A stretch of DNA of 64,000 nt from Herpetosiphon gulosus (GTDB lineage: Bacteria; Chloroflexota; Chloroflexia; Chloroflexales; Herpetosiphonaceae): the NCBI RefSeq assembly GCF_039545135.1, contig NZ_BAABRU010000004.1:130427-194426 (forward strand), given 5' to 3'. The position numbers and the translations under genes were made by a program. How positions within the stretch are numbered: position 1 is the first letter of the stretch; each line of letters starts with the position of its first letter. Shown in pieces: positions 13,860 through 60,225 of this stretch. The notes below the pieces were generated by a model. It searched no databases, was not told the origin of the DNA, and worked only from the letters and a program-made list of their open reading frames with translations.

Positions 13860-13911
13860 AAGTCAAAGGGCAAAAGTCAAAAGAGTCTAAACCAGAGATC
13901 AAATGGTTCAT

Positions 13912-14015: not shown

Positions 14016-14054
14016 TGAGAATTCTTATTAACCCAATCAACCATTATCTATAGA

Positions 14055-14112: not shown

Positions 14113-14115
14113 TTC

Positions 14116-18465: not shown

Positions 18466-18589
18466 AATAGATCTCCTAGGTTGGTCAACGCGGCCAACTC
18501 TGACATGATCATAGTTGAGCAGACGATTTTTGGCAACCAAGCTGCATGAATTTTTGATGACAAATTCCTAAGAACATCAAGCAAAGAAC

Positions 18590-18840: not shown

Positions 18841-18910
18841 CGATAATGGTACAATAGCAGCGGGCATTCGCCCCTTGCTGATTGTATATACCCAATGGTG
18901 CTAACAATCT

Positions 18911-20820: not shown

Positions 20821-20841
20821 TTGTGTGGTTTGAGGGAAATC

Positions 20842-24888: not shown

Positions 24889-25232
24889 ATGCCGTCCCTC
24901 CTAAAACGATAGCTGTGAGGTTTAGCCTAAGGCTTGCCAACCATGGATTCAATCGGTTAAGGTTACAAAGCGATGACAGGACGAAGGGATCAGAGGTCAG
25001 GATTCAGGGGCTAGGTTGGAAGCATAAGGGTTTAGGCATTAACACAGAGGCACAGAGCGTTAAGGCTATCGACTTTTGGCTATCGGAGATTGATTGGAAA
25101 AACCATCACATGTTCCGATAGCCTAGCGCCAATAGCCTCATCTCCCTTCATGTTCTTCATGGTTACAAAAATCTAATGCCTTGTCCCTAGTCCCTGACCC
25201 CTAGCCCATGTATTACAATGAGGTAATGTTGT

Positions 25233-26723
25233 ATGCAGTATATTGCGGCACTCGACCAAGGCACAACTAGCACGCGCTGTATGGTTTTCGATCACAATGG
25301 CAATGTTGTCGGGGTTGATCAACGTGAGCATACCCAGATTTTCCCGCAGCCAGGCTGGGTCGAGCATAATCCCGCCGAGATTTGGCAACGCACGCAGGGC
25401 GTGATCGCTGGAGCATTGGCAGCGGCCAACATTGAAAAAACTGATCTGGCGGCGCTGGGCATTACCAATCAGCGCGAAACAACCGTCATTTGGGATCGTC
25501 ACACAGGCAAGGCAATTTACAATGCGTTGGTCTGGCAAGATACCCGCACTGATTCGCTTGTGCGCCAATTTGCTGCCGACGGCGGCCAAGATCGTTTTCG
25601 AGCGCAAACAGGCTTGCCCTTGGCGACCTACTTTTCGGCTACCAAAATTCGTTGGCTACTTGATCAGGTTGAGGGTGCACAGGCAGCAGCTGAGGCTGGC
25701 GATCTGTTGTTTGGCACGATCGATTGTTTTGTGGCTTGGTGGCTGACGGGCGGTCCACATGGCGGTTTACACATCACCGACACCACCAATGCCTCACGCA
25801 CCTTGCTGCTCAACCTCGCGACTGGTGATTGGGATGCTGAACTATTGGAAATTTTTCGAATTCCGCGCAGCATGTTGCCCAGCGTGCGATCCTCAAGCGA
25901 GGTATATGGCCCATGTCGCGGCCAACTCGATGGCGTGCCGTTGGCGGGAATTTTGGGCGATCAACAGGCTGCGACGGTTGGGCAAGTGTGTTTTGAAGTT
26001 GGCGAAGCCAAAAATACCTATGGCACTGGCAATTTTATGCTGCTCAATACTGGCGAACGCTTGGTGCAATCGCGCCATGGCTTGATCACCACGCCAGCCT
26101 ATCATTTTGGCCAGCAGCCAACGTGGGCCTTAGAAGGCTCAATCGCGGTAACTGGCTCGTTGGTGCAATGGCTACGCGATAATTTGGGAATTATTCACAG
26201 CGCGGCTGAGGTTGAACCATTGGCTGCCAGTGTGGCTGATAACGGTGGCGTGTACCTTGTGCCCGCCTTTTCGGGCTTGTTTGCCCCCCATTGGCGCTCC
26301 GATGCGAGGGGAGTGTTGGTTGGGCTAACCCGCTATGCCAACAAAGCGCATATTGCACGGGCGGCACTTGAAGCGACTGCCTACCAAACCCGCGAAGTCG
26401 TCAGCGCCATGGCCCAAGATTCAGGGGTTGAGTTGACTGCGCTCAAAGTTGATGGCGGAATGGTGGCGAATGAATTGCTTATGCAATTTCAGGCTGATAT
26501 TTTGGGTGTGCCAGTTGTGCGGCCCAAAGTTGCCGAAACCACCGCCTTAGGGGCAGCCTACGCTGCGGGTTTGGCCGTTGGCTACTGGGCGAATCCAGCT
26601 GAATTACGCGCCAATTGGAGCGAAAGCAAACGTTGGGAGCCACAAATGAGCAGCGATCAGCGTGATAGCTTATATGCACAATGGAATAAAGCAGTGCAAC
26701 GCACGCTCAATTGGCAAGATTAA
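25233..26723 (+). CDS. glpK: Glycerol kinase
   Basis: [20 protein letters not shown] actin-fold N-terminus plus FGGY C-terminal motifs. 496 aa. Confidence 0.92.
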
Positions 26724-26809
26724 GCTACCTAATCCGTCTTGATACTAGCCAAATCAGCGGCTGGTTTGGCTACTAAATTGCTACTTCAGAAAACCTACAA
26801 TCGATGGTA

Positions 26810-26852
26810 TTGTGGTTATATCCAAAAATACATCCATGGTTTTGTGATATAA
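26810..26852. promoter_or_regulatory. Perfect 10-bp inverted repeat (TGGTTATATC-N23-GATATAACCA) in AT-rich leader upstream of the GGDEF gene
   Basis: Direct reading of tggttatatccaaaaatacatccatggttttgtgatataacca. Confidence 0.4.
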
Positions 26853-27000
26853 CCAACTCACGATTCACGAATACATTTGGCGAATATTCAAAGACATTTC
26901 ATATTGTGGTCTTGGCTTTGGCAACTCCTGCTAACTCCGCAGCCAACCGCGATGAATTCGTTAGCTTTGGCCATTTACCCATCCTGCGGAGGTAGGCGGC

Positions 27001-28227
27001 ATGGCGCTTGACCAGCCAACGGTTGCCTTAATTGTCGGAATTGGCTTGTTGCTCCAAGCATTGGTAATTGGGGCTTTTTTAGTTTTTGTTCGGCGTTATC
27101 AAGGGATTCGCTGCTTTTTAATTGGCACGATTGGTTTAGGTTTGGGCTTTTTAGCCTTAGCTTTATTGCCCCAAACCTCATTAGCAGCAATCACAAGTAG
27201 TTATATTTTGATACTCAGTGGCTTGTTTGGGCTAAGCAGTGGGATTTTACGCTTCATCGGGGCTACCAGTTCAGCCAAAATTTATGCGATCTGTTGGCTA
27301 ATCGTTGCTGGAATGCTCAGTCTGTGTGCTTGGTGGTTTGCCGATCCAGGCTTAATTATCAATTTGGCGATGCTGCTTGGTAGCGCAGGCATGGCCTATA
27401 CTGCGCTCCAAGTATTTTTTCAGCGCACCATCCCCTATCAAAGTGCCAGTCGTTTGTTGGCTTTGGCCTTGACCCTCAAAATTGCAATTATCTTTTTGGG
27501 CTTGGCCTATTTTTGGTATAGCCAGCGCTGGCCGAGCCTGACGACCTTGAAACTAGGCTATAGCGTGCTGATTTTGCTGCTTTCGCTGCTGTGGACTGGC
27601 GGCTTTGCGGTAATGATTACCCAGCGCATGCAATGTGATTTATCGGCCTTGGCCAGCATTGATGTCTTAACGGGCATTGCCAATCGCCGCGCAATCAACG
27701 AATATTTAGAGCAGGCGATTGCCAAATGGCGACGCAACCAGCAGGGTTTTGCGGTAATCATGCTCGATATTGATTGTTTTAAACAGATTAATGATCGTTA
27801 TGGTCACCACGCTGGCGATTCCGTGTTGCGCCATATTGCCTTGGTGCTGAGCGAACAAGTGCGAATTAACGATCTAATTGGGCGCTGGGGAGGCGAAGAG
27901 TTTCTTTTGATTGTTGATGCCGATACGATCCAGCAAGCAACCTTGATGGCTGAACGCTTACGTCAAGCTATTCAGCAACAACCAACCGTCTGGGATGATC
28001 ACGTGATTCAGCATACAGTCAGCATTGGGATTGCGCTCTGTGGAACGCATGGCTTCAACGAAGCCCAATTACTGACTGCTGCCGATTTAGCGCTTTACGA
28101 GGCCAAGGAAACTGGTAAAAATCGCTGGATTGTCTATGAGCGCCGTTTGTTGAACCAGCTTGATCCAGCGCTAGAACTGGCCAACGAAGGGCTTATTTTC
28201 GATGTTGATTCATCGATTTATGCCTAA
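27001..28227 (+). CDS. Diguanylate cyclase (GGDEF) with N-terminal 6-7 TM sensor region
   Basis: GGEEF active site (RWGGEEFLLIV) and RxxD-like I-site context. Membrane N-terminal half. Confidence 0.85.
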   Translation: MALDQPTVALIVGIGLLLQALVIGAFLVFVRRYQGIRCFLIGTIGLGLGFLALALLPQTSLAAITSSYILILSGLFGLSSGILRFIGATSSAKIYAICWLIVAGMLSLCAWWFADPGLIINLAMLLGSAGMAYTALQVFFQRTIPYQSASRLLALALTLKIAIIFLGLAYFWYSQRWPSLTTLKLGYSVLILLLSLLWTGGFAVMITQRMQCDLSALASIDVLTGIANRRAINEYLEQAIAKWRRNQQGFAVIMLDIDCFKQINDRYGHHAGDSVLRHIALVLSEQVRINDLIGRWGGEEFLLIVDADTIQQATLMAERLRQAIQQQPTVWDDHVIQHTVSIGIALCGTHGFNEAQLLTAADLALYEAKETGKNRWIVYERRLLNQLDPALELANEGLIFDVDSSIYA

Positions 28228-38363: not shown

Positions 38364-39485
38364 CTAGCGTGGTTGCCAAAATGGGCGATCAGGCCAGCGC
38401 TGTTCTTGGGCATAAATCTGCTGGCGAAGCTGGCGATAAGCTTGCCAAGCCTGCTCAATCTGATGTCCATAGCCATGCAGCGCGGCAATTGAGCCTTGGT
38501 TGGCAGCGATTAAACATTGAGCGGCATCGCGGGCGCTGGTTAATCCCACCGTAATTCCATGGGCCGCCAGCGGATCATAGCTCATGGCCGCGTCGCCGAT
38601 CGCCAGCCAACCATTGCCATAGCAGCGATCTAAGCGGCTACTGCTAGCATCGACCCAATACGGTTGGGCACAAAGCTGGTGTTGATCGAGCCATTGTTTG
38701 GCCCAAGTGCTACATTTGAGGGCTTGCCACCAACCCTCGGCATGAACAAGCTTTTGGCGTTGGGTGGCAGTTGGGTGACCAATAAAAATGCTGGCCATTT
38801 GAGCTTGCGGCACTCGCGCCACATACCACCAACCATCAGCTACCGCCTCGACCAAGCTCCGCTGATCGGGCCATGGCTGAGCTTGCGGCTCCAGCATCGC
38901 CACCAAACCAAGCTGTTTGGGGCCATCAATCTGGGTTTGTATTCCCAATCGCCGCGCTAGCCAACGTGCTCGGCCAGTCGCCTCAATCAGCCAGCGCGTT
39001 TGAAATAATTGCTCGCCAACCCCCATAATCCAGCGCTCAGACTGACGTTCGAGGTAGCTAATTGACACTGAACTGAATGTTACGCCCAATCCAAGGCCGC
39101 GCTGGCGGAGCTGCTGCTCAAAGTGCGGTCGATTGAGATGCCAGCCATGGCCATAGGGCGTTGCCAAAAAATCATGATGATAGAGCGCATCTGATCCCCA
39201 AGCTGCTAGATTGCCCGGGCAAATCGAATGCTCCCGATCAAGATCTAGACCCAGCTCGTGCACCAACGGGCGAGCGGCAGGCGCTAAACTTTCGCCAAAG
39301 CACTGTGGCCGCGTAGGCGGGCGTTCGAGTACAACCACCTGCAACCCATGCCGTGCGAGATGCACGGCACAGGCGCAGCCAGCGATGCCGCCGCCAACGA
39401 TCAAACAATCAATCGTTATTGGCTTCGGCGGCATTTTTGCGTCCTCGCTTGAGGCGTTGTTGTGGCCAATTGAGGTCGCTATCAA
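38364..39485 (-). CDS. lodB: LodB-like FAD-dependent flavoprotein (CTQ cofactor biogenesis partner)
   Basis: ITIDCLIVGGGIAGCACAVHLARHGLQVVVLER Rossmann motif, with a likely start MPPKP at 39434. It is about 370 aa, located immediately 3' of and overlapping lodA, as in Marinomonas lodAB and goxAB. Confidence 0.7.
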   Translation of the reverse strand: MIATSIGHNNASSEDAKMPPKPITIDCLIVGGGIAGCACAVHLARHGLQVVVLERPPTRPQCFGESLAPAARPLVHELGLDLDREHSICPGNLAAWGSDALYHHDFLATPYGHGWHLNRPHFEQQLRQRGLGLGVTFSSVSISYLERQSERWIMGVGEQLFQTRWLIEATGRARWLARRLGIQTQIDGPKQLGLVAMLEPQAQPWPDQRSLVEAVADGWWYVARVPQAQMASIFIGHPTATQRQKLVHAEGWWQALKCSTWAKQWLDQHQLCAQPYWVDASSSRLDRCYGNGWLAIGDAAMSYDPLAAHGITVGLTSARDAAQCLIAANQGSIAALHGYGHQIEQAWQAYRQLRQQIYAQEQRWPDRPFWQPR

Positions 39486-41352
39486 CCAGATCGGTATCTG
39501 GCTCGGCGGCTAGACTACGGGTTAATTGGGGAGCCTCGGTTTCAACCTTGCGACCTGTTTCAACCCAGAGCGTTTGTGGAAAACTGGCGCTATGTTCAGG
39601 CCCAGTTTGGGCGATGATAATGCCCACGGTATCCCATTCGTTGGTAAATTTAGTAATTGCCGGCACGGTTGGAATATGGCCTGGTGGAATGCTCTCAGTG
39701 TAGACCATCCCGCGCAGCCACTTGCGGCGGGTAGTCGGCGCGAAGGCTTGGGCACGCTCTTCAGGCGTAGCATCAGGGTTCATAATAATCTGGTAGCTCT
39801 CTTGGCTAAGCACATCGTTGGGCACACGAGCAGGCCAAAAAGTGGGCAAATAGGTTCCGGCATAGCCCATATAGGCTGAGAGACAGCTTGAAGTATCGGT
39901 TTGCCAAGGCACGGCCATCCAACGGGTGATCGCCCCAGCATCGCTGGCATACAACATCCCATTGGGAGCTAAGGCAGTAGCCGCATCAAGCGTATCGCCC
40001 CAATCTGGCTCAGGGCTGGTGCGACGTTTGAGCCGAAATGGCGCTACATACATCGAAGCATGACGTAACGGCCAAGTGAATTCGCAGCCGGGGTGAAACG
40101 GGCCGCCCAAGGTTGCATCAAGCGCTGCCCGCGTGAGATTGTAGGCCTGTTCAGCCGGATCAAGCTGCTCCCACGACCTGACCACGGGCAAACCATCGGC
40201 AATAAAATCGCCATTGGCCCATTGCTCGAGCCAACGATATTGGCTTGGCAGAATTGCTTGCCACTCCTGCGGATCGGTGGTTTTGGTGTTGAGCGTAATC
40301 GCATCGCCATAAAACAATGGCAGGCCTTCGGGATCGATATAGGGATTACTGGGACTGCGCATTTGAGCTAAAACAGCTTGGCGCAATGGTTCGCTAGCAG
40401 CACTAGGATCGCCCAAGTGGGCGATCAACTCGGGATTATTGAAATCACTGGGGCTGCCCCAACCAAAACTACGGGCAAACCCAGCGTTAACCCATTGCAA
40501 CTGACTAAAGCGTGAGAGCAGGGGATAAATTTCGCTGCTAAAACGTGGCTTGGCTGGTGCAAGCGTCGGATCAAGCTGCATCGCCACTTCAAATAGCAAA
40601 TCGTAGCCTGTCATAATCGAATTTGTGCCTGGGGCATAATCAGGTGGCGCAACAATCACCCAAGCATGAGTTGCCTGTAAAACGCGGCCATCACTCAATT
40701 TGACCACGGCCTCAATCGGGCCATCGGCAGTATCGTCGTGCCAATCATCGTTATCGGCAAAGGTGGTTAAGGGCTTACCATGGGCTGAAGCTGAGTGACC
40801 ACGTCCGCCCAGCACAATCAAATTGCCCTGTTCATCGGTGCGCAATTCGCCCAAATAAACTTGCTTGCCAAAGAATGTGCCCTGATCAAAGGCATAGATC
40901 GCCTCTGCTCCCTGAGGGTTGACATTTAGGCCACAAATACTGCGTGTGCCACCGTCGATTGTCAATTGATCGCGCTTGGTTACATCAGCATTGCGGCGCT
41001 TGCTGACAATTTTGCCATCGGCCGAGGCCGGAATATCCAGCGCTTGGATAAATTCGTACCACGCGGCTTTTTGATTGGCGAGCTGCGCCGTCCAGACAAT
41101 TTCTTGCAGATCAGGATTGGTTTGGTTTAACTCGCAAATCACCTCACCTGCGGAATTCAAGCCATAAACCCGAAACCGCGCCGCTTGGCGTTTGATCGCG
41201 CCACTAGGATCGCGAAACAAGTCGGGGTCAACTTGAGGCGCACCCAACACTTCGGGGCCATAAAAAAATTCATTTGGGCTATTTCCGACGCGAGCAAAGC
41301 CAACCGGAGGATAAATCGCAACGCTGACAATCTCAGCACAAGCCATAATCAA
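39409..41352 (-). CDS. lodA: LodA/GoxA-family quinoprotein amino-acid oxidase (cysteine tryptophylquinone, H2O2-generating)
   Basis: Multiple blocks match LodA of Marinomonas mediterranea as I recall it: VAIYPPVGFARVGNS (LodA VHPSIGVARLGNA), VWTAQLANQKAAWYEF (LodA WTVHLANKKAAWYEF), GNLIVLGGRG (LodA GRLIVLGGYG) and AVPWQTDTSSC (LodA ACPWQADFFNC, which has the CTQ Trp). A candidate CTQ Cys lies in HPGCEFTW. 647 aa. Confidence 0.85.
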   Translation of the reverse strand: MIMACAEIVSVAIYPPVGFARVGNSPNEFFYGPEVLGAPQVDPDLFRDPSGAIKRQAARFRVYGLNSAGEVICELNQTNPDLQEIVWTAQLANQKAAWYEFIQALDIPASADGKIVSKRRNADVTKRDQLTIDGGTRSICGLNVNPQGAEAIYAFDQGTFFGKQVYLGELRTDEQGNLIVLGGRGHSASAHGKPLTTFADNDDWHDDTADGPIEAVVKLSDGRVLQATHAWVIVAPPDYAPGTNSIMTGYDLLFEVAMQLDPTLAPAKPRFSSEIYPLLSRFSQLQWVNAGFARSFGWGSPSDFNNPELIAHLGDPSAASEPLRQAVLAQMRSPSNPYIDPEGLPLFYGDAITLNTKTTDPQEWQAILPSQYRWLEQWANGDFIADGLPVVRSWEQLDPAEQAYNLTRAALDATLGGPFHPGCEFTWPLRHASMYVAPFRLKRRTSPEPDWGDTLDAATALAPNGMLYASDAGAITRWMAVPWQTDTSSCLSAYMGYAGTYLPTFWPARVPNDVLSQESYQIIMNPDATPEERAQAFAPTTRRKWLRGMVYTESIPPGHIPTVPAITKFTNEWDTVGIIIAQTGPEHSASFPQTLWVETGRKVETEAPQLTRSLAAEPDTDLVDSDLNWPQQRLKRGRKNAAEANND

Positions 41353-41388
41353 ATCTCCTTAATAAACCATTCAAACATTTTTTAAAGG

Positions 41389-42402
41389 CTAAGTTAAATC
41401 GTGACGAGGTTGGCGTGGCTCCACAAGCGGAATGCCATTACGTTGGCGGCGCAACTCTGCCGAAGCTTGATAGACCACTTTGCGAGCTTCACTAATACTG
41501 CCGACTGGAGCGTGTTCGGGCAGTGCATGCCATGGGTTGAAGGCCAGATTTTCAACGTAAGCGGCTTGACCAGGCGCATCAATATCTTGTTGGGGCAGGG
41601 TTAGGGTTGCCACATGCAGCGGCGGCGCTAGCTCGGTTGACCATTCGACGGTTGCAGCATCCAACGGCATCAGCTTAGGATTGGTGCGCAGTTGAATGCT
41701 AAAGTGCAGATCAATCGGGCCGGCCAACAAGCGACTATGCAGATCATCGTGCAAAAAGTTGGGGTTGAGCTGTGGGTTGCTCGGCGGTTGCGGATTGAGC
41801 GATTCAAGCGCCAAGTGATATTTGACGTAACGGCCTTGACCAAAAGCATAGGGCAGACCGCTCCAATAAACTGCATCGAAGACACTAGCCAAATTTTGCT
41901 GCATCAGATCAAGAATTTTGCGGGTTTTGGGGTGTTTGGCGAGATAGGCATCATAGCCATCACCTACCAAGCCTTCGTAGGTAAATTCGCACATATCCTT
42001 GGCGGTATCGACAAAAAAGACTGGATAATTTTGCAAGACCAAATCGTGAGTTAATGCATCTTCTTCACCAGTTAATAATTTACGACCGTGTACCCCAAAT
42101 AGCTTGATCCCTACACCCAAGGTTGTGCCAAGATCGCTGGCAAACGGCACGGTATCGCTGGAAAAGCGCAGCCAAGCCGCAAGCTGATCGTAAGCCAACA
42201 AGCCAACTCGTAGCTCGGCTGGCAAATCGGGGCGAACCCACCAAGTCGCTTTGGCCCCACCGTGCGGCTTAAGAAACACCGCCCGTCGAACCGGATCTTG
42301 TCCGGCGTTAATCCGCGTGCCCATAGTTTTGTTGACAAATAGCTGGCGTAGTTGGGTGATGGGATCAGCACATGGACAATCGTGAGCATGATCTGAACTC
42401 AT
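41389..42402 (-). CDS. Small catalase-related haem protein (mini-catalase or peroxidase-like)
   Basis: 337 aa. The C-terminal SEARKVVYQASAELRR fits the catalase proximal ligand motif R-x3-Y-x2-S-x3-R. RRAVFLKPHGGAKA resembles the distal RVVHAKGxGA region. Confidence 0.45.
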   Translation of the reverse strand: MSSDHAHDCPCADPITQLRQLFVNKTMGTRINAGQDPVRRAVFLKPHGGAKATWWVRPDLPAELRVGLLAYDQLAAWLRFSSDTVPFASDLGTTLGVGIKLFGVHGRKLLTGEEDALTHDLVLQNYPVFFVDTAKDMCEFTYEGLVGDGYDAYLAKHPKTRKILDLMQQNLASVFDAVYWSGLPYAFGQGRYVKYHLALESLNPQPPSNPQLNPNFLHDDLHSRLLAGPIDLHFSIQLRTNPKLMPLDAATVEWSTELAPPLHVATLTLPQQDIDAPGQAAYVENLAFNPWHALPEHAPVGSISEARKVVYQASAELRRQRNGIPLVEPRQPRHDLT

Positions 42403-42456
42403 ACAAGCTCCTCATTGCAGCGTGATCGATGAGGGCAGCCAATTTTAAGAATATTC

Positions 42457-42560
42457 CCTCACCCCCACCCCTCTCCCACTGCGGCGGGAGAAGGACAACT
42501 GGCGGGATAGTTCCCCCTCGCCTCGCTTGCGGGAGCGGGGCCAGGGAGTGAGGGATGGAG
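42457..42560. repeat. Family A palindromic repeat (degenerate unit)
   Basis: tccctcacccccacccctctcccactgcggcgggagaagg ... gggagcggggccagggagtgaggg. Confidence 0.8.
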
Positions 42561-42612
42561 ATTATTGTCAATCCAATAAACTATTTCGCCTAGCAATTGA
42601 CTGCTTAGTTAA

Positions 42613-43509
42613 TTAACGTAAGAAGGGCTGGTTAATTAGACTATTTGGACACTCAAGTTGGGGAATTTGTTGAAACTTGTTGTCGTAGAGGCTGCGGCGC
42701 AGTTGTTCGCCCAGGTTGGCATAGCTAATTTGGGGATTTTCGCTGAGGATATTTTTCAAAAAGAAGGTCATTGCACCATGGTAGGTTCCGCCAAAATTGG
42801 CATCGGCGGCAACTTGCTCGGCCTTACAAGCAGAAATCAAAACCGTATTTTCGTGCTGTGGGCGTTGACCAAAGCTCTGTTTTTGCAACGAACTGACTAA
42901 ATCGCCTGCAAACTTGGCAATTTCGGTTGGGTCGGCGCTCCGTTGTTGCAGATCAAGAATTTGCTGCGCCACACTATCAACCTGTTGCTGTTGATAGGCC
43001 TGCTTTTTGGCACGAATTTCGTCAAAAACTGCTTTGGCGGGAGTTAAGGTGCGATACCGAATATCGGCAAATGGATCTTTGCTGATCGTGCCCGAATGAC
43101 AACAATCCATCAATAAAATCAGCCGCGTTGTGCCCAAAAAACCTTGGTACAGCTCAGCCAAATGGTCATCGGTAAGCAGGCCAGCGCTAGGATAATCGAT
43201 CGGAGCAAGACATTCATCAGCACCATCGGGTTCATCACCATTTTGATCAGGCTGCTGCACCCCATGGCCAGCATAATGAAAAATCCGAATTTCCGGCTGA
43301 CCATCGTTGAGCGGTTCGGCGAGCCAGCGCAAATTATCGATAATCGCTTGGCGCGTAGCAGCAGCATCGGTGATCAAACGCAGCTGATCATCGGCAGCAG
43401 CATGCTGGGCTTTAAACAACTCACGAACTGCACTTACATCGTTAACACAGCCCTTGAGTGGCCGCTCGCTATAACTATTGATTCCCACAAATAAGCCACG
43501 AATACCCAT
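42613..43509 (-). CDS. Caspase-like peptidase C14 domain protein (standalone)
   Basis: p20-like fold markers GINSYSERPLKGCVNDV, His dyad context HYAGHGVQ, and catalytic Cys context LLMDCCHSG. 298 aa, with no fused effector domain. Confidence 0.8.
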   Translation of the reverse strand: MGIRGLFVGINSYSERPLKGCVNDVSAVRELFKAQHAAADDQLRLITDAAATRQAIIDNLRWLAEPLNDGQPEIRIFHYAGHGVQQPDQNGDEPDGADECLAPIDYPSAGLLTDDHLAELYQGFLGTTRLILLMDCCHSGTISKDPFADIRYRTLTPAKAVFDEIRAKKQAYQQQQVDSVAQQILDLQQRSADPTEIAKFAGDLVSSLQKQSFGQRPQHENTVLISACKAEQVAADANFGGTYHGAMTFFLKNILSENPQISYANLGEQLRRSLYDNKFQQIPQLECPNSLINQPFLR

Positions 43510-43701
43510 AGTGCAAACTCCTCAGCGCTAATTTTTTTGGGATGATTGCAGCGTGGCTATACAGTAGTAGAGCGTTATAGCCCTGTCAAGAGCAAAACCA
43601 GCGCATGCAAAACCAGCATAATCAGGTACAATAGGCGCAGATGGGGGCAAAGAACTAGTTGTTCTTTGCTCCCCTTTTGCGAACAATGGAGGACAAACGG
43701 C

Positions 43702-44355
43702 GTGAGCGCAGAGCAACGACCAATTGTGATTGGGGTCGCTGGCGGAACTGGATCAGGCAAAACTACCGTTTCTCAGGCGATTCTTAGTCGCGTCGGGCCA
43801 TCACGAATTGCATTTTTACAGCACGATTCCTATTATCGTGATTTTGCTGAGCTTTCGTTTGAAGAACGCTTGCGAGTCAATTTCGATCATCCTAATTCAC
43901 TCGATAGCAATTTGCTGGCGCAACATATCGAAGCCTTATGCAATGGTGAGACGATTGAGGTACCAATTTATGATTTTACCCACTATAGCCGTCGGCCTGA
44001 GGTGATGCATGTGCAACCGCGTCCGGTTATTTTGGTCGAAGGCATTTTGATTTTTGCCGAAGCGGTGTTGCGCCAATGCATGGATGTAAAAATTTATGTT
44101 GATGCTGATGCTGATTTGCGCTTTATTCGCCGCCTCAAACGCGATATTGCCGAACGTGGCCGCTCAATCGAATCGGTGATCGAGCAATATACCAACACCG
44201 TGCGCCCGATGCACCTTGAATTTGTCGAGCCAACCAAGCGCTATGCCGACATTATTATTCCACGCGGTGGCTTAAATGCGATTGCGATCGATATGGTGAT
44301 TGCCCGCGTTGAGTATTTGTTGGCCGAGAGCGAGAAAGTTAAGGATGAAGGATGA
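43702..44355 (+). CDS. udk: Uridine kinase
   Basis: GTG start after ggagg (VSAEQRPIVIGVAGGTGSGKTT P-loop). The ORF track shows a longer TTG/ATG-extended version from 43546. Confidence 0.85.
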   Translation: MSAEQRPIVIGVAGGTGSGKTTVSQAILSRVGPSRIAFLQHDSYYRDFAELSFEERLRVNFDHPNSLDSNLLAQHIEALCNGETIEVPIYDFTHYSRRPEVMHVQPRPVILVEGILIFAEAVLRQCMDVKIYVDADADLRFIRRLKRDIAERGRSIESVIEQYTNTVRPMHLEFVEPTKRYADIIIPRGGLNAIAIDMVIARVEYLLAESEKVKDEG

Positions 44356-44450
44356 ATTATGAGGGATGAAGAACAGAGAGCATAGAATATCAATGGAAAT
44401 CGGGATTGGTTTTTAACGCAGCGGTGCAGAGAAATTAATGGCTATTAGTT

Positions 44451-44575
44451 ATTGATCCACGAAGAGCACGAAGGGTAAAACCACGAAGGACGCGAAGAGC
44501 GCGAAGGGTGCTTAACCCACAGCCTACAGCCCTGATCCCTAACACCTGGCCCCTCATCATTCTCTGTGCCGCTGC
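44451..44575. repeat. Left copy of a 125-bp perfect direct repeat (family C) flanking the SUKH gene
   Basis: attgatccacgaagagcacgaagggtaaaaccacgaaggacgcgaagagcgcgaagggtgcttaacccacagcctacagccctgatccctaacacctggcccctcatcattctctg is essentially identical to 45137..45262. The reverse-complement cccttcgtgctcttcgtggatcaa motif also occurs at 60120-60180, 48960-49000 and 31441-31475. Confidence 0.9.
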
Positions 44576-44597
44576 CTCCTGAATCTTGCCCCTAGGC

Positions 44598-45101
44598 TCA
44601 ATCGTCATCATCAAGCGGGCGTTCTGGCGACAAGCTATCAACAAATGCTTGGAATGAAGGGCTACAATACGACACATTGTAATACAGATCGCCCTCATCT
44701 TCGGACTCTAGCTCAAATTCATGATCCCAAAAATAGACCTTGCCTCGCTGCTCACCACGAATTCCCAAGCAAATCACATTACCACCAGGATCGCAAGCAA
44801 TTGGCAGAAGTTCAAGTGGAATTCGTGTTTCATACGCGGTGTATGTTCTAATCGTATCTCGAATTTCATAGTATTCTGAGGCTGGATCAAGGGTAAGAAA
44901 GAAGTGGATCATACTTTCATCATCAGGCAACAATAAGGGGCTTCCGGTTTTGAAAACGGTTAGCTCAGGTTGGCCACCATTATGTTCAAGCAAAAATGAC
45001 CGATAATCTTCTGGCAATCGACAGCCCAACTCTTGCTCAAAAGCCGCCACTTCGGCCTCATTAGTTGGAGTAAAGCCATCAACAATTGTTATGTTCATCA
45101 C
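44598..45101 (-). CDS. SMI1/KNR4 (SUKH-1) family immunity-type protein
   Basis: The N-terminus EAEVAAFEQELGCRLPEDYRSFLLEHNGG is the canonical SUKH-1 motif. 167 aa with an acidic C-terminus. Confidence 0.75.
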   Translation of the reverse strand: MMNITIVDGFTPTNEAEVAAFEQELGCRLPEDYRSFLLEHNGGQPELTVFKTGSPLLLPDDESMIHFFLTLDPASEYYEIRDTIRTYTAYETRIPLELLPIACDPGGNVICLGIRGEQRGKVYFWDHEFELESEDEGDLYYNVSYCSPSFQAFVDSLSPERPLDDDD

Positions 45102-45136
45102 ATCTCCTCAAAATTAAAACATGCCAGCCAATAAAT

Positions 45137-45262
45137 ATTGATCCACGAAGAGCACGAAGGGTAAAACCACGAAGGACGCGAAGAGCGCGAAGGGTGCTTA
45201 ACCCACAGCCTACAGCCCTGATCCCTAACACCTGGCCCCTCATCATTCTCTGCGCCGCTGCA
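45137..45262. repeat. Right copy of the 125-bp direct repeat (family C)
   Basis: See 44451..44575. The copies differ by 1 nt near the 3' end (tgtgcc versus tgcgcc). Confidence 0.9.
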
Positions 45263-45297
45263 TTAAATTCTGAATCCTGAACCCTATAATCTCTGCG

Positions 45298-46224
45298 CTA
45301 TCTAGGCTCAGCTTTTTGACTTTTGACTTTTGACTTTTGACTTGCTCTCCGTTCCCGTTTGCCGCGCTCCAAATGCTGCTTGATCAACCCTTCAACTGCG
45401 CTACGATCAGCGCTGATTTGAGCTTGAATTGCACGGCGAGTTGCGAGGGTTTGCTTGAAATTGCGGCCATGCCAGATCCAAACATTCAGCATTGCCAGAT
45501 TACGCTGGCGCAAACTGACAACCGCTGTTTTGGCTAGCATACGCAAGCTATAGCTCAATACCGCCGACCATGGCCGCAGCTTCAGGTAACAATACAAACC
45601 GTTTTTGCTGCTCTCGACCAGCCAACGTTGGCCGCCGCCGCTACCACCGCGCTCGTGCACCACCAACGCCTCAAAATCTTCGAGCACCTGCCAACCCAAC
45701 AACCATGCCCGCCAGCATAATTCAGTATCTTCCCAATACAAGAAAATAGCTGGATCAAAACCGCCAATCGCTTGCCAAGCGCTGCGCCGAAACAACATCG
45801 CACAGCCTGGCACCGCCGCCGTGATCGCTACACCTTGGCGGGTGGGCGGCGCTTGATTAGGATACAAGGTGGTTGGGCAAATAATCGCCGCTTGGGGATT
45901 GGCTGCTAGATGTTGGCGCAATAGGGTCAACCAATTGGGAGTGATTTGTACATCGGGATTGAAAAATAAAAAATATTCGCCAGTTGCCGCCACCATGCCT
46001 TGATTGCATGCCGCACCAAAGCCATGATTATGTTGATTGTCAATCAGCTGAACCTGCGGATACTGCTGACGCACCAACTCGGCAGATCCATCGCTTGAAG
46101 CATTATCAACTACAATTAATTGATAATTGTCGTCGTTGGTGGTGGCGAGGCTGGCAAAACAAGCGGGCAATAGTTCGGCGCTGTTATAGCTCACGATGAT
46201 GATCGAAATTTGACCTGGAATCAT
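45298..46224 (-). CDS. Glycosyltransferase family 2
   Basis: ISIIIVSYNSAELL and DNASSDGS motifs. The C-terminal tail (SQKSKVKSQKAEPR) is encoded by a (gactttt)x4 heptamer tract at 45307-45345. Confidence 0.85.
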   Translation of the reverse strand: MIPGQISIIIVSYNSAELLPACFASLATTNDDNYQLIVVDNASSDGSAELVRQQYPQVQLIDNQHNHGFGAACNQGMVAATGEYFLFFNPDVQITPNWLTLLRQHLAANPQAAIICPTTLYPNQAPPTRQGVAITAAVPGCAMLFRRSAWQAIGGFDPAIFLYWEDTELCWRAWLLGWQVLEDFEALVVHERGGSGGGQRWLVESSKNGLYCYLKLRPWSAVLSYSLRMLAKTAVVSLRQRNLAMLNVWIWHGRNFKQTLATRRAIQAQISADRSAVEGLIKQHLERGKRERRASQKSKVKSQKAEPR

Positions 46225-47276
46225 GCGGGTTTCTCAAATAAACGGCGATAGACTGCCGCAGTTTGGCTAGCAATCTGGCCCCAATCGAGCGCTTGAACTG
46301 TTTGGAGCGCGTTTTTGCGCAAGGCTTGTGGGTTGGGATGGGCGGAGGCTCGTTGCAAAGCGACAGATAAGCTAGCCGAATTATTGACCTCAAACAAAAA
46401 GCCATTCTCGCCATCGCGAATCAATTCGCGTACTGGCGGCAAATCAGGGGCGATCACTGGCGTGGCATACGAAAGTGCGGCCAGCAACATACCTGAGGTC
46501 AAGGTTTTGCGATAAGGTAACACCACCACATCCGCTGCTGCAAACCAAGCAGGCAAGAGGGCATCGGCAATGAACTGGGGCCGTAGCGTGATGCTAGGGT
46601 CGGTTGCATGTTGCTGCAAGTGTTCAGCATAGCGTGGATCTTTGGCTGCACCCACAATCAGCAAGCGGCCAAGCTCGGCAGACCAAGCCTCAAGCAACAA
46701 TTCCACACCTTTGTAGGGACGCAATGTGCCAAGATTGAGTGCAACAAAGCCTTTGGGTACTAATTGCAAATGCTCACGCGCTGCTGCTTGTTCCAAGGGT
46801 TCGCCATAAATCCCAATATACGAGCCATGGGCAATCACGTTGGTTTTAGCGGCAACTCGATAGCGTTGATCAAGCAGTTGAGCGGCGGCCTGCGAATGCA
46901 CAATAATTTGATCAGCCGCCTGCGCCATAGCTTGATAACAACGCTGTGCCCATTGCGGGTAGCATAATTCATGTGGTTCTAAGTTGTGAGCCGTCCAAAC
47001 CAATCTTGCCCCACGCCAACCTAGCAAGCGCAATAGCGCAATAAAGCTCATGCTGCGCAATGCGGTTGCCGCTTGGCTAGGCTGCTGGGTCAGTTCATCG
47101 AAAAAATGCCAATGCAATACTCGTTGATCGCCATGCAATAAGCCATGATGTAAGGTTTGAGCAAATGGCAGCCGCACAATCGGCACATCAGGCCATGCGC
47201 CAAATGGCGCATACAACAAATCAAGATATGGGTTAGTCGCCAATAAACGCGGAATCGGATAGATCGTGATACTCAT
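46221..47276 (-). CDS. Glycosyltransferase family 4-like (GT-B)
   Basis: Start MSITIYPIP at 47276. It has a C-terminal EGFGLP-like region (ENGFLFEV). 4-nt overlap with the GT2 gene. Confidence 0.7.
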   Translation of the reverse strand: MSITIYPIPRLLATNPYLDLLYAPFGAWPDVPIVRLPFAQTLHHGLLHGDQRVLHWHFFDELTQQPSQAATALRSMSFIALLRLLGWRGARLVWTAHNLEPHELCYPQWAQRCYQAMAQAADQIIVHSQAAAQLLDQRYRVAAKTNVIAHGSYIGIYGEPLEQAAAREHLQLVPKGFVALNLGTLRPYKGVELLLEAWSAELGRLLIVGAAKDPRYAEHLQQHATDPSITLRPQFIADALLPAWFAAADVVVLPYRKTLTSGMLLAALSYATPVIAPDLPPVRELIRDGENGFLFEVNNSASLSVALQRASAHPNPQALRKNALQTVQALDWGQIASQTAAVYRRLFEKPA

Positions 47277-47323
47277 AGTTTTGCGTTGGCCGCCAAGCGC
47301 GACCAACGCCCTACAAAATAATT

Positions 47324-48847
47324 CTATGGTGTGGGAATTCCACGATAGCTGTTGGTTCCGCCGCCAGTCGTGAAATACAACGTGCCATTAATCTCGCCAA
47401 TAATGCCCGAATAACGGGTTGCTGGCAAGTTATTGGGCATTTGTGCCCAAGTATTCGTAGCCGGATCATACACATAAATCGTGTTATGTCTGGTTCCGTT
47501 GGTGGTTTGGCCCGCAAAGACGAAAATTTTACCGCCAAGCGCCAAGGTCGAATGGCTAATATGGTTCAAGGCCAACGGAATATCGGCCATTTGTTCCCAT
47601 ATATTTGTGGCAGGATCGTAGCGATGCACATCGTTATCGACAGTTAAGCTACCATCGTGGCCATGCTGGCCGCCAATATAGTAGAGTTTGCCATCAAGCA
47701 CGACCCCACCAGCATGTTGACGTGGATTGGGCAACTCGGCATAGGTTAGTTGGTTAGTTTGGGTCACCCAGCCTGTCGCCAAATCATTCAAATCGAGCAC
47801 AAAATGCGTGCCAACATCAACCTGTTTGTAATAGGTTCCGCCAACATAATGCAATTTACGATCAAGATAATAAAGCTGGCCCGCCGCCCGTTGGATTGGA
47901 ATCACCGGCAAGTTGGTATAAGTATTGGTGGCGGTGTCGTAATAGCGCGAAACCCGTGAACCAAAAATCTGGCCAACTCCATCAAAATCTTCAATATAGC
48001 CACCAACCAAGAAAATCTTCTGGCCATCGGTAGCCGTGCCAACGTGGGTCAAACCGCGCTCCAAGGGGGCAATCGCTGTCCAGGTATTGGCCACTGGATC
48101 ATAGACATTCGACAAACGTGAGGGTGTATCGCCCGATAAACCAGGCTGCCCGAAGCCACCAAAGACATACAATTTACCGCCAACTACTGCGCCTTGTGCT
48201 TCAACCGCCGCAAAGGGATAACTAAATGGGGTTGGCACAGCAGTTGACCAAACAATCCGCGTAAAGTTGGGCGGTGTGGTTGGGGTCGCCGTACCCACAA
48301 TCGTGGTTGGGGTGGTGGTTGGTGGGCGTGGTGTTGCCGTAGCCGTGCTGGTCGGCGTTAATGTATTGGTTGGTGTACTCGTTGGTGTTGATGTATTGGT
48401 TGGGGTATTGGTCACGGTTGGCACAGCGGTTGGGGTGTTGGTCGCAGTTGGCACATCAGTTGGTGTGCTGGTCGCAGTTGGTACATCAGTCGATGTGCTT
48501 GTTGCCGTTGGCACGTCAGTTGGTGTGTTGGTTACTGTGGGAATATTCGTCGGCGTATTGGTTGCGGTTGGTACATCGGTTGGTGTGCTTGTTGCCGTTG
48601 GCACATCAGTTGGGGTAGTGCTCGATGTCGCAGTTGGCGAGAGCATCACGTTTGTTGCGGTTGCCGCAGTGGTTGGCATTGGCGTAATTTCATTAGAATT
48701 TTTCAAGGCCAACGGTAAAAACGTACAAGCGCTCGTTGTGCAATTAGGGTCATCCAATAGGCCAGTTGTGCGAGCTAAACTCAAGCCAGCACTCGCTAGA
48801 AGCAGCGTCAGGCTGATTGCGATTAATATCCATCGTCGGCGCTGCAT
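47324..48847 (-). CDS. Secreted Kelch-repeat beta-propeller protein with Thr/Pro-rich repetitive linker
   Basis: Signal peptide [25 protein letters not shown]. ([10 protein letters not shown])n linker. C-terminal Kelch blades ([27 protein letters not shown]). Confidence 0.8.
48340..48640. repeat. About 30-bp tandem repeat array (roughly 10 units) within the Kelch gene linker
   Basis: gttggcacatcagttggtgtgctggtcgca-like units repeated. They encode [10 protein letters not shown]-type decapeptides. The plus-strand ORF 48267..48917 is an antisense artefact of this array. Confidence 0.85.
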
Positions 48848-48869
48848 GCAATGTTCTCCATATATGTTG

Positions 48870-49070
48870 GATGAGGGGTCAGGGGCTAGATTTAACGCAG
48901 AGGGTAATAGGGGCTAGGGTTTAGGGGTCAGGGGCCAGAGACAAATACTCTCGTCCATGAAACCTGATCCCTCGGACTTTGTGCGCTTCGTACCCTTCGT
49001 GGATCAACCTTAGCTTAGCCCCTGAACCCTCGCCCCTGAACCCTGACCACTCGCCCCTGCATCCTATTTC
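48870..49070. repeat. Composite intergenic repeats (families B and C)
   Basis: tttaacgcagagggtaatagg, gtgcgcttcgtacccttcgtggatcaacc, and gcccctgaaccctcgcccctgaaccctgacc. Confidence 0.6.
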
Positions 49071-59929: not shown

Positions 59930-60225
59930 AGGATGAGGGATGAGGGGTCAGGTTTCAGGGGCGAGGGCTAGAAGTTCATGCAGAGCCACTAAGAAGGAGG
60001 AATTATGAGGGATGAAAGCAACCATCAAAAATTGAGGATCACGCTATTCAACGCAGAGGCGCAGAGAAAAATGAGGGAACAGATGTCAGGGTCAGCAGAA
60101 ATTGGGACTTTGGGATAAGCAACCTTCGTGGCCTTCGTGCTCTTCGTGGATCAAAATAATCTTCGTGCCCTTCGTGGATCAAAACTATGAGCCTGATCCC
60201 CGATCCCTAACCCCTGATCCCTAAC
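59930..60225. repeat. Composite intergenic repeats (families B and C, inverted orientation relative to 44451)
   Basis: aggatgagggatgaggggtcaggtttcagggg, ttcaacgcagaggcgcagag, ccttcgtgctcttcgtggatcaa (reverse-complement of family C core) and ctgatccctaacccctgatccctaacacct. Confidence 0.7.

Follow-up and report, generated by a model that had tools for sequence, protein, structure and literature searches.

An orphan SUKH-1 immunity-type gene in Herpetosiphon gulosus lies within a repeat-gene-repeat structure that may be open to deletion by homologous recombination

Results

The SUKH-1 (SMI1/KNR4) gene of Herpetosiphon gulosus was investigated in a stretch of 64,000 nucleotides, which is called the window. 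The gene is located between two near-identical direct repeats, and these repeats are part of an older duplicated segment, which comprises the end of the neighbouring gene and spacer DNA. On balance, we consider it probable that this is an old acquired orphan immunity-type gene whose repeat-gene-repeat structure has been kept, and that it is deletable by ordinary homologous recombination. The gene is ordinary and dispensable, and the locus is no dedicated cassette system.

The SUKH-1 gene and its protein

The open reading frame was located on the minus strand at 44598-45098, with the ATG at 45098 and the TGA stop at 44598-44600, and encoded 166 aa. The product matched P0001, the SMI1/KNR4 protein of H. 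gulosus, at 100% identity, and for this protein NCBI also annotates a length of 166 aa. An earlier note, made from the sequence of this DNA, had assigned the gene to SUKH-1, and the assignment was confirmed by profile search. Pfam family PF09346 (SMI1_KNR4) matched over profile positions 1-124 of 125 with an E value of 1.6e-25 and 90.5 bits (curated cut-off 25.4 bits), and matches to SUKH_6 and SUKH_5 were also obtained. The SUKH fold was backed by the AF2 model of the protein (pLDDT 88, pTM 0.85). The first Foldseek matches were 3d5p, 8bd1_B (RhsPI), 2icg, the SUKH domain of FBXO3, 2pag, YobK, Syd and Knr4, so that RhsPI, the immunity protein of the RhsP-WHH pair, was the second-best structural match. 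A profile built from 14 SUKH homologues also led to 3d5p, a Smi1/Knr4 family protein. With the protein alone, the PDB sequence search and the NCBIfam search gave no match, and the PADLOC search gave only PDC-M40A, which was weak and partial.

The earlier note had also stated that no toxin gene was adjacent. This was consistent with the Pfam search of 44 of the larger ORFs in the window, including all those within ~20 kb of the SUKH gene, which gave no toxin, integrase or transposase. The immunity role of the protein is predicted from homology and from the gene context of a relative. This relative, P0012, is a homologue at 37% identity, and a gap of 10 nt separates its gene from a preceding RHS/PT-HINT/WHH toxin gene. 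At 37% identity, no conclusion on toxin specificity can be carried over from P0012 to the H. gulosus protein. The nearest homologue outside Herpetosiphon showed only 46% identity.

The GC content of the gene was 0.44 and its GC3 was 0.37, compared to 0.51 and ~0.50 for the neighbours. Low GC relative to the neighbours was also observed in NSE202 and H. llansteffanensis, which also carry the gene, and in each of the three carriers the composition of the gene is foreign. The 5' leader (45099-45135, minus strand) contained a ribosome-binding site as read from the sequence (GAGGAG, 45104-45109, 5 nt upstream of the ATG), and the leader ...GAGGAGAATTTGATG was kept in NSE202 and H. llansteffanensis. 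A consensus promoter scan of 44250-45400 gave no promoter-like site. A terminator scan of the same region gave a single terminator-like site, which was inside the ORF and not above shuffles.

Direct repeats around the gene

The gene is flanked by a direct repeat of 126 nt, termed R, at 44450-44575 and 45136-45261, with a start-to-start distance of 686 nt. The copies matched at 125 of the 126 positions, and the sole mismatch was T at 44567 versus C at 45253. The near-identical direct repeats with one mismatch that the earlier note had described were thus recovered. A match of this kind cannot arise by chance. R-right (45136-45261, minus strand) is the upstream copy and was a full element of the family described below, in the spacer that separates the GT2 stop from the SUKH start, with its 3' end GGATCAATA located 37 nt before the SUKH ATG. 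R-left (44450-44575, minus strand) is the downstream copy, and its outer end at 44450 was the left junction of an inversion specific to H. gulosus.

There was no third copy of the R allele in the 64 kb. An R-specific 20-mer gave only two matches, both unrelated, in a genome-contig collection that did not include H. gulosus, and no match in a metagenome collection. Neither terminal inverted repeats nor target-site duplications were found at either R copy. DNA and RNA folding of R on both strands was no better than that of shuffled sequences (z +0.7 to +1.5), and the udk-SUKH spacer showed no significant fold. The sole notable feature was a 16-bp stem, which was present owing to the inversion. 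An Rfam search of the SUKH locus gave only chance sub-threshold matches (TeloSII, plant miRNA hairpins).

The repeats within an older duplication

The GT2 3' end and the adjoining spacer are duplicated, and the perfect tract of R is the youngest part of this older duplication. We call its two copies H1, which contains R-right as its core, and H2, which contains R-left. The older, diverged part of H1 (45262-45310, minus strand) ran from the GT2 stop region, with TGAGCCTAG at 45302-45310, to the perfect tract. The corresponding part of H2 (44576-44600, minus strand) ran from the SUKH stop region, with TGAGCCTAG at 44592-44600 including the TGA stop, to the perfect tract. This 9-mer occurred only twice in the 64 kb, at equivalent positions in the two stop regions, and the local alignment of H1 and H2 continued past the perfect tract with indels.

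A similar arrangement was observed in the other carriers. In 20 kb of NSE202, GAGTAAGAA was confined to the stop regions of GT2 and SUKH, and the GT2 end with its spacer aligned to the SUKH end with its spacer over ~345 nt. In H. llansteffanensis, 43 of the 44 nt downstream of the SUKH gene were those of the GT2 3' coding end. The duplication thus bracketed the gene in all three carrier species. Since the duplicated unit begins at the stop-codon regions and holds GT2 3' coding sequence, a segmental duplication was indicated, not two element insertions. The stop-proximal motifs could partly be generic gene-end repeat modules, because TAAGAACAT... was also present at 18569.

The flanking pair was 99% identical in the H. 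gulosus core and 86-93% identical in the NSE202 element, whereas dispersed copies and orthologous copies of the element were 57-77% identical. A derived variant, ...GAGCCTAG, was common to both H. gulosus copies, and the GT2 end of H. aurantiacus did not carry it. These comparisons suggested that H1 and H2 evolve in concert inside each species.

A dispersed intergenic repeat family

R was built from family C modules according to the earlier note. This was correct: R belongs to a modular repeat family of Herpetosiphon, termed E, whose copies are dispersed among intergenic sites. The layout of the element was 5'-TTAACGCAGAGGCGCAGAG ... (CTTCGTG)n GGATCAA-3'. In this analysis, the family was defined by a 5' anchor similar to TTAACGCAGAGGCGCAGAG, followed by a purine-rich heptamer run, a variable middle, a (CTTCGYG NN)n run and a 3' GGATCAA anchor, and by an intergenic location. 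R carried the anchor and the runs at an intergenic site; all parts were present in R-right, and R-left lacked the first 6 nt only.

Besides R, E copies were found at no fewer than five other window sites, including 18621, 31434, 48890 and 60046, in loci L001, L006 and L009 and in other Herpetosiphon genomes. The adjoining genes were housekeeping genes and encoded response-regulator, STAS, CheW, DUF3224 and Kelch proteins. The family is not specific to cassettes. The spacer at 18566-18850 (plus strand) was a third one of the H type, consisting of the TAAGAACAT... stop-proximal module, an E element and the response-regulator (RR) promoter region. It was located upstream of a response regulator and was orthologous to the GT2-RR spacer of MAG L009. 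One repeat module was common to many unrelated metagenomic organisms, and an Rfam search of 17 metagenomic loci gave only chance sub-threshold matches. For the E family, no description was found in the searchable literature and no family in Rfam.

Neighbour genes and inversion

The SUKH gene was joined to the 3' end of the conserved Kelch-GT1-GT2 operon (45298-48847, minus strand). On its other side was the uridine kinase gene udk (43546-44355, plus strand, as the longest ORF; orthologues are annotated with 219-221 aa). The block from 44450 to ~48880 was inverted in H. gulosus compared to H. aurantiacus, NSE202 and MAG L009, and udk is convergent with the SUKH gene solely because of this inversion. 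In H. gulosus the locus order was C...A-B(inverted), compared to A-B-C in NSE202 and L009. A rearrangement history of two or more events is required, and the right-hand junction did not fit a simple inversion.

The rearrangement junctions fell at element ends. A partial E copy at 44409-44449 (plus strand) consisted of the 5' part, TTTTTAACGCAGCGGTGCAGAG...AATGGCTATTAGT, and was cut off at the inversion junction. Its orthologue in H. aurantiacus is the spacer between udk and Kelch. A 22-nt inverted repeat (44412-44433 and 45246-45267) was formed by the 5' ends of two family copies in opposite orientation, which are now close together because of the inversion.

Distribution, age and selection

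The SUKH gene was present in H. gulosus, NSE202 and H. llansteffanensis, in each case as a single copy without close paralogues. It was missing downstream of GT2 in the other three of the six lineages, namely H. aurantiacus, MAG L009 and L010-L012. In MAG L009, the site was flanked by GT2 and RR as in NSE202, and between them was a single spacer of 266 nt, which retained only the first ~44 nt of the NSE202 repeat and otherwise consisted of unique sequence. H. aurantiacus had a different neighbour downstream of GT2. The empty sites were not clean single-H scars, and for this reason loss of the gene by recombination between H1 and H2 is regarded as plausible only.

GT1-GT2 identity was 0.89 between H. 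gulosus and H. aurantiacus compared to 0.78-0.81 for the others. This grouped H. gulosus with H. aurantiacus, so that two or more losses of the SUKH gene were required. The dS of the gene was 0.77-0.90, compared to 0.39-1.13 for GT2 (0.90 against 1.13 in one comparison), and dN/dS was ~0.14 (0.12-0.15). The gene has thus co-diverged vertically with its neighbours under purifying selection and is not a recent insertion.

Discussion

Proposed history of the locus

The results could be explained as follows. A SUKH-1 gene would have entered the Herpetosiphon lineage long ago, directly downstream of the Kelch-GT1-GT2 operon. It is located within H1 - SUKH - H2, in which the last few tens of GT2 bases and the spacer with its E element are doubled. 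Such a structure might be the product of a single crossover, as in Campbell-type integration of a circle with one H, or of unequal exchange. H1 and H2 may then have recombined repeatedly with each other by gene conversion, and the concerted evolution of the copies in each species would be due to its continuation. In H. gulosus, the most recent exchange would have homogenised 126 nt, ending precisely at the lineage-specific inversion junction. Since the tract stops there, repair-templated copying during the rearrangement may be its source. RecA-type recombination or replication slippage between the direct repeats could remove the gene so that a single H remains, in agreement with the absence of the gene from half of the lineages. 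As predicted from its relatives, the most likely function of the protein is to neutralise incoming WHH/HNH-type nuclease toxin from competitors or kin. A dedicated recombinase or cassette machinery would play no part.

The earlier note had proposed a cassette that was inserted or is exchangeable by recombination between repeat copies. This was upheld in part. The foreign composition and the presence or absence at the same site were in its favour, and a duplicated target is what insertion or excision through such recombination should leave. However, the insertion was not recent, as the gene has diverged together with its neighbours.

Other explanations

The bracketing could be coincidental, with two independent copies of a common repeat around a resident gene that were homogenised by gene conversion and are uninformative on its arrival or loss. 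E copies occurred about once per 8-10 kb next to housekeeping genes, and with ~7 of ~60 spacers occupied, one adjacent pair was expected by chance according to our estimate. In addition, the housekeeping pair tatA-tatC (2615-3830) was likewise bracketed by the most similar pair (87-93%) of another repeat family, and metagenomic contig L026 had the same 19-mer module on both sides of an oxidoreductase gene. However, the unit around the SUKH gene starts at stop regions and includes GT2 coding sequence, as the H. llansteffanensis copy indicated, and the gene is compositionally foreign and varies in presence at this very site. We considered coincidence to be unlikely. It was less likely still that R is a mobile element of the non-autonomous kind (MITE-like or IS200/IS605-derived), active in the recent past and inserted on either side of the gene. 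The contrast between the 99% identity of the R copies and the lower values of other family members would fit such an element, as would the 3' identity boundary (GGATCAATA), which is the conserved 3' end of the family, and the position of element ends at rearrangement junctions. This was opposed by the absence of terminal inverted repeats and target-site duplications at the R copies, of a third R-allele copy in the 64 kb and of a transposase in the window. Moreover, the 5' end of R-left was truncated, the older diverged homology extended further, and the bracketing pair of NSE202 was a different one, for which concerted evolution is a better fit than two double insertions.

If dedicated cassettes (integron, CALIN or rAID-like) were involved, R would be an attC-like site served by a site-specific recombinase encoded elsewhere, and the locus would be the seed of an immunity-cassette array, as the earlier note had suggested. 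The low-GC immunity-type gene and the repetitive spacers resemble features of rAID-1. However, no recombinase was present in the 64 kb of the window or in the orthologous loci of 20 kb, R formed no attC-like hairpin as RNA or DNA, the gene was single in its three carriers, and the same repeat family flanked housekeeping genes. No array or array seed was found, and a cassette system was judged very improbable; the locus is not an integron-like or rAID-like cassette array. An assembly artefact, in which misassembled repeat-rich spacers gave rise to the duplication or the inversion, had hardly any likelihood. In the H. llansteffanensis draft, the SUKH gene was alone on a contig of 899 bp, which indicated that repeats of this kind break assemblies. 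However, the R copies differed by one base and their unique flanks differed, the gene-between-repeats layout was also present on a 1.03-Mb contig of NSE202, and the ends of the inversion had no long identical inverted repeats of the kind by which an assembler might be misled.

Comparison with known systems

Polymorphic toxin systems are known to have orphan immunity genes, among them those of the SUKH superfamily (Zhang, Iyer and Aravind 2011, PMC3113570; Zhang et al. 2012, PMC3482391). The solved example is RhsPI, by which the RhsP WHH nuclease is neutralised (PDB 8bd1). The Herpetosiphon gene resembled such genes in its profile and fold, its low GC relative to the neighbours and its patchy presence among close species, and its 37%-identical homologue directly follows a toxin gene. 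It differed in that no toxin was found in the 64-kb scan, that it was single with no poly-immunity array and that neutralisation is predicted. A toxin gene immediately upstream, by which immunity proteins are recognised, was present only for the homologue and not for the H. gulosus gene in the window.

According to Ross et al. (bioRxiv 10.1101/471110), the rAID-1 loci of Bacteroidales have by definition an XerD-like tyrosine recombinase at the 5' side, with at least two genes in the same direction downstream. An orphan immunity-type gene, GC below that of the host and repetitive spacer sequences were common to both. In contrast, the SUKH locus had no recombinase, the SUKH gene was the sole gene of its kind, a glycosyltransferase operon was located upstream, and the flanking repeats belonged to a genome-wide family and came from a duplicated neighbour gene end. 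The locus was similar to integron cassettes with attC sites in having a short, promoterless-looking ORF between repeats of ~60-140 nt and in its variable presence. However, there was no integrase in the window or the orthologous loci and no array, R was not an imperfect palindrome (z > 0), and the repeats were direct copies of the flanking chromosome.

Campbell-type single-crossover integration or unequal exchange gives a repeat-gene-repeat structure, and nearby direct repeats are kept alike by gene conversion. The SUKH locus was similar in that the duplicated segment corresponded to the chromosomal target (GT2 end and spacer), the copies appeared to evolve in concert and the gene could be lost with one copy left. 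It was dissimilar in that the empty sites were not clean single-copy scars, and integration and excision would have to be assumed. REP/BIME sequences are dispersed short intergenic repeats, and the same is reportedly true of the cyanobacterial STRR heptamer repeats, said to have been described by Mazel et al. in 1990. The E family was similar to these in its modular structure, its units of heptamer or nonamer period, its confinement to spacers, its many copies per genome and its location at rearrangement breakpoints. The sequence and the architecture, TTAACGCAGAGGCGCAGAG ... (CTTCGTG)n GGATCAA, were different.

Implications

The locus may serve as a worked example of an accessory immunity-type gene in a repeat-gene-repeat structure that would be gained and lost among close species by homologous recombination, without an integron or a mobile element. 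The duplication around the gene would account for its presence and absence among related species. This could be useful for interpreting 'orphan immunity' genes of predatory and soil bacteria, and it is a warning that a small gene bracketed by repeats is not automatically a cassette. H. gulosus is itself a predatory bacterium.

A wider and rather doubtful proposal is that the bracketing repeats belong to an undescribed intergenic class that crosses phyla and has a 9-nt period (TTAAC + (GCAGAGNC)n; relatives CACGAAG, CACAGAG and CGCAAAG) that acts as a general recombination substrate for gene-sized indels and inversions. If so, 9-nt-period repeats would set the limits of such changes not only in Herpetosiphon but in many other bacteria as well, and the SUKH locus would be one product of widespread repeat-driven gene gain and loss that requires no recombinase of its own. 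The spacers of Herpetosiphon contain fast-evolving modular repeats that mark synteny breakpoints, and these merit a study of their own if not already described.

The SUKH gene and its protein

The SUKH-1 (SMI1/KNR4) immunity-type gene, here called SUKH, was located at 44598-45098 on the minus strand. It encodes 166 aa from an ATG at 45098, with GAGGAG 5 nt upstream of the ATG, and it lies immediately 3' of the glycosyltransferase gene GT2 in the same direction. An H. gulosus protein at NCBI was 100% identical. The SUKH-1 identity, proposed in an earlier note from a sequence motif, was confirmed. Pfam SMI1_KNR4 matched with an E value of 1.6e-25, far over the curated cut-off, and SUKH_6 and SUKH_5 also matched. 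The profile search, which the earlier note had named as the check on the fold, backed it: a profile built from 14 SUKH homologues found the solved Smi1/Knr4 protein 3d5p. The AlphaFold2 model (pLDDT 88, pTM 0.85) matched, in order, 3d5p, RhsPI (8bd1_B), 2icg, the FBXO3 SUKH domain, 2pag, YobK, Syd and Knr4. RhsPI is an immunity protein, its toxin being the WHH nuclease RhsP. One SUKH homologue, 37% identical, has its gene 10 nt downstream of an RHS/PT-HINT/WHH toxin gene, and another is an orphan with housekeeping genes around it. By analogy with RhsPI, a top structural match, and with the 37%-identical homologue, the protein would most likely neutralise a WHH/HNH-type nuclease toxin.

Pfam scans were performed on 44 larger ORFs of the window, including all larger ORFs within about 20 kb of SUKH. 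These were ordinary chromosomal genes: HsdM, TatA/TatC, NusB, fatty-acid synthesis, two-component systems, MoxR/DUF58, GGDEF and MFS proteins, a LodA-like lysine oxidase, a caspase-like protein, uridine kinase (udk), the Kelch-GT1-GT2 operon (GT1 being a second glycosyltransferase) and a chemotaxis cluster. No polymorphic toxin, integrase or transposase was found among the 44 ORFs, and the description of SUKH as an orphan therefore held. The gene appears akin to the orphan immunity genes of polymorphic toxin systems. However, the toxin adjacency that is defining there is missing here. The GC content of SUKH was 0.44 and its GC3 0.37-0.43, compared with about 0.51-0.54 and 0.50-0.61 for its neighbours. 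SUKH is compositionally foreign in all three carrier species alike, H. gulosus, Herpetosiphon sp. NSE202 and H. llansteffanensis.

The stretch at 38364-43509, 1-6 kb from SUKH, encodes the LodA-like L-lysine epsilon-oxidase, whose enzyme family is antimicrobial, along with a flavoprotein, a 337-aa protein without Pfam match and the caspase-like protease. This gene set is common to H. aurantiacus, and other FAD-binding genes stand in its place in NSE202 and in a Herpetosiphon MAG (L009). In the Kelch gene (47324-48847), at least seven tandem 30-nt repeats at 48339-48624 encode a Pro/Thr-rich linker in the N-terminal part. The length of the Kelch-repeat protein varies between species from 497 to 511 aa.

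The direct repeats and the dispersed element

The near-identical direct repeats reported around the gene were confirmed. The two copies of the repeat, R, are 126 nt each (44450-44575 downstream and 45136-45261 upstream of SUKH) and differ by one mismatch, T at 44567 and C at 45253. Their spacing is 686 nt, with SUKH as the one ORF between them. R is not a unique sequence but a copy of an intergenic element, E, that is modular and dispersed. From 5' to 3', E consists of the anchor TTAACGCAGAGGCGCAGAG, a purine-rich heptamer run (GATGAGG, GTCAGGG), a variable middle, CTTCGYG units at a 9-nt period and the 3' anchor GGATCAA. Further E copies, located by anchor search and by alignment, lie at 18621 (+), 31434 (-), 48890 (+) and 60046 (+), with a truncated one at 44409 (+). 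Others were found in 20-kb loci of NSE202, H. aurantiacus and the Herpetosiphon MAG, at about one per 8-10 kb. The genes adjoining E copies, in the window and in these loci, were STAS, response-regulator (RR), DUF3224, anti-sigma kinase, Kelch and CheW genes. Given such neighbours, the E family is not cassette-associated, and the proposal that the repeat marks cassettes was not sustained. Dispersed E copies were 57-77% identical to one another, and the SUKH-flanking pair was an outlier at 99%. R folded as RNA or DNA no better than shuffles (z +0.7 to +1.5), no Rfam family matched it, and no description of Herpetosiphon repeats of this type was found in the searchable literature.

Around the entire R-SUKH-R unit lies a 22-nt inverted repeat, 91% complementary (44412-44433/45246-45267). 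This is formed by the 5' ends of two opposed E copies that the inversion brought side by side, and its transposon-like look is accidental. The purine-rich spacer halves (48865-48945, 18605-18680, 59930-59965) hold runs such as GGGGTCAGGGGCTAG...GGGGCTAGGGTTTAGGGGTCAGGGGCC that could form G-quadruplexes; on that strand, the other spacer halves are rich in C/T and poor in G. Coding regions run on into repeat modules at the GT2 end (45298-45345), at the udk end (44335-44355) and also at 14061-14113. The C-terminus of GT2, ...SQKSKVKSQKAEPR and stop, is encoded by (AGTCAAA)n and GCTGAGCCTAG, and that of udk, ...KVKDEG and stop, by (AAGGATG)n. Repeat modules supply the stop codons, and the repeats therefore alter protein C-termini from species to species.

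Duplication and concerted evolution of the GT2 end

The 9-mer TGAGCCTAG occurred exactly twice in 64 kb, in the GT2 stop region (45302-45310) and at the SUKH stop codon (44592-44600). In 20 kb of NSE202, the GT2 stop and the SUKH stop were the sole sites of the 9-mer GAGTAAGAA, and an alignment of about 345 nt joined the GT2 end and spacer to the SUKH end and spacer. The H. llansteffanensis sequence just 3' of SUKH agreed at 43 of 44 nt with the GT2 3' coding end as found in MAG L009. The shared stop-region 9-mers and the alignments therefore place SUKH inside a duplicated GT2 3' end and spacer (H1-SUKH-H2). From these comparisons, the duplication is larger and older than the perfect 126-nt tract.

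Stop-proximal variants were species-specific, yet common to both copies within a species. Both copies read ...GAGCCTAG in H. gulosus and GATGAGTAAGAA in NSE202, and in H. aurantiacus the GT2 end has ...GAGACTGAATAG. As wholes, the spacers had short modules alone in common between species. This pattern is concerted evolution of H1 and H2, with the copies continuing to exchange sequence. The H. gulosus tract showed 0.8% divergence, compared with a dS of 0.39 to the sister species, and the 22-49 nt from the stop codons to the tract carried indels. The tract is the latest H1/H2 exchange in H. gulosus, and the stop-to-tract parts are older.

Presence and absence of SUKH in Herpetosiphon

SUKH orthologues (80-82% aa identity) were found only in H. 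llansteffanensis and NSE202; the next-best matches were at most 46% identical and metagenomic. The gene order in NSE202 is udk, Kelch, GT1, GT2, SUKH, RR. There SUKH also lies between direct repeats of another sequence, 86% identical over 204 nt and 93% over a 160-nt E element. In H. llansteffanensis, SUKH stands alone on an 899-bp draft contig (PUBZ01000041.1) that ends in multi-copy repeats. Sites lacking SUKH were found via GT2 orthologues. In H. aurantiacus DSM 785, GT2 is followed by one E element and a different histidine kinase (HK)/RR pair. In MAG L009, a single 266-nt spacer and then RR-HK-MoxR genes as in NSE202 follow. In three further contigs (L010-L012), a convergent SIR2-SIR2-kinase cluster (L010 3106-6406) begins 27 nt after GT2. 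SUKH is thus carried by three of six lineages. The downstream flank of GT2 is a variable hot spot, where four different neighbours occur. The SIR2-SIR2-kinase-like cluster looks like a defence system. NSE202 also has an extra 308-aa gene with a faint GNAT match between the caspase and udk genes (L001 4058-4984), and H. gulosus has none.

The GT1-GT2 nucleotide identity was 0.89 between H. gulosus and H. aurantiacus and 0.78-0.82 for the remaining pairs, and the carrier H. gulosus was therefore placed beside the non-carrier H. aurantiacus. Between H. gulosus and NSE202, dS was 0.90 for SUKH and 1.13 for GT2, with a SUKH dN/dS of 0.12-0.15. A divergence close to that of its neighbour and the low dN/dS therefore indicated vertical inheritance under purifying selection since before the species split. 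On these sequence comparisons, SUKH was lost at least twice.

REARRANGEMENT

Of all the lineages compared, H. gulosus alone carries the Kelch-GT1-GT2-SUKH block (44450 to about 48880) in inverted orientation. Past the udk gene, the sequence stays homologous to H. aurantiacus as far as ...AATGGCTATT (about 44446), and the downstream R copy starts at 44450. The inversion junction is therefore the outer end of this R copy, which is also the natural 3' end of E. In NSE202 an RR block comes after SUKH, and in MAG L009 after GT2; in the window this block lies from 18802 onwards, at a distance of 25 kb (RR-HK-MoxR region 18566-27188). A complete H-type spacer stands just before the block. Of the first 35 nt of this spacer, 32 are identical to the GT2 stop-proximal spacer of MAG L009. 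Spacer unit boundaries thus recur as breakpoints, and the rearrangement history needs at least two events. All breakpoints lay at unit boundaries of repeat-rich spacers.

Origin of the repeat-gene-repeat structure

We observed an old, selected SUKH-1 gene of foreign composition, which in every carrier lies inside a duplicated GT2 end and spacer. We also observed that the H copies evolve in concert and that SUKH is present or absent at the same site. The gene was probably acquired long ago and is held, and can be deleted, by general recombination between the duplicated GT2 ends and spacers. Single-crossover integration of a circle with one H, or unequal exchange, would give H-gene-H. Gene conversion would keep H1 and H2 alike, and the last conversion in H. 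gulosus was possibly repair-templated copying at the inversion break. RecA-type deletion between the same direct repeats might explain the repeated losses. However, the empty sites in H. aurantiacus and MAG L009 were not clean single-H scars.

Two dispersed copies might instead have flanked SUKH by coincidence and then been converted. Another repeat family likewise flanks the tatA-tatC genes with its closest-matching pair (87-93%), but GT2 coding sequence is part of the duplication, and we consider coincidence unlikely. A recently active MITE-like element is less plausible still, since R has no inverted termini, no target duplications and no third copy in the 64 kb, and NSE202 has a parallel but different flanking pair. 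The cassette reading of the earlier note stood in part. Presence or absence at the site and the duplicated flanks agreed with it, but the recombinase, hairpin and array tests for a dedicated system all failed. An integron-like system, or one like the recombinase-associated rAID-1 defence cluster, is thus very improbable; within the window and the 20-kb orthologous loci, R-SUKH-R lacks all three features, and its likeness to a cassette is superficial. We give hardly any credence to an assembly artefact, because the R copies have distinct flanks and the same layout occurs on a 1-Mb NSE202 contig. On balance, R-SUKH-R seems to be a SUKH-1 member set in a repeat-gene-repeat structure that general recombination made and maintains.

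Other repeats

The most unusual observation beside the main finding is the 19-mer module that forms the 5' anchor of E (18625, 60050 and related sites). Metagenome contigs (L015-L134) matched it exactly at least 120 times; their GC was 0.39-0.70 and their sources were rumen, soil, lake and sludge. As a rough control, an R-specific 20-mer gave no matches in the same collection. CGCAGAG-type units at a 9-nt period usually come after the 19-mer, with CACAGAG, CGCAAAG and CACGAAG units nearby. An inverted copy (...CTCTGCG..GTTAA) lay within 200 nt in 22 of the 130 matches listed and would form a long hairpin. Among the matches listed, 58% were in long stop-free frames, compared with 87% for background. 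IMG/VR viral contigs gave only four matches (L135-L138). No Rfam family and no matching paper in the searchable literature were found for the motif, which seems to be an undescribed repeat module crossing phyla.

A second, palindromic family (CCCTCACCCC..CCCTCTCCC ... GGGAGAGGGG..GGGGTGAGGG) has copies at 2361-2560, 3960-4106, 6767-6982, 13910-14041 and 42451-42540 and at 30-160 of the H. llansteffanensis contig (L002). The copies at 2361-2560 and 3960-4106 are the pair that forms direct repeats around the housekeeping genes tatA-tatC. Nearby copies of this family were again more alike than distant ones (62-82%).
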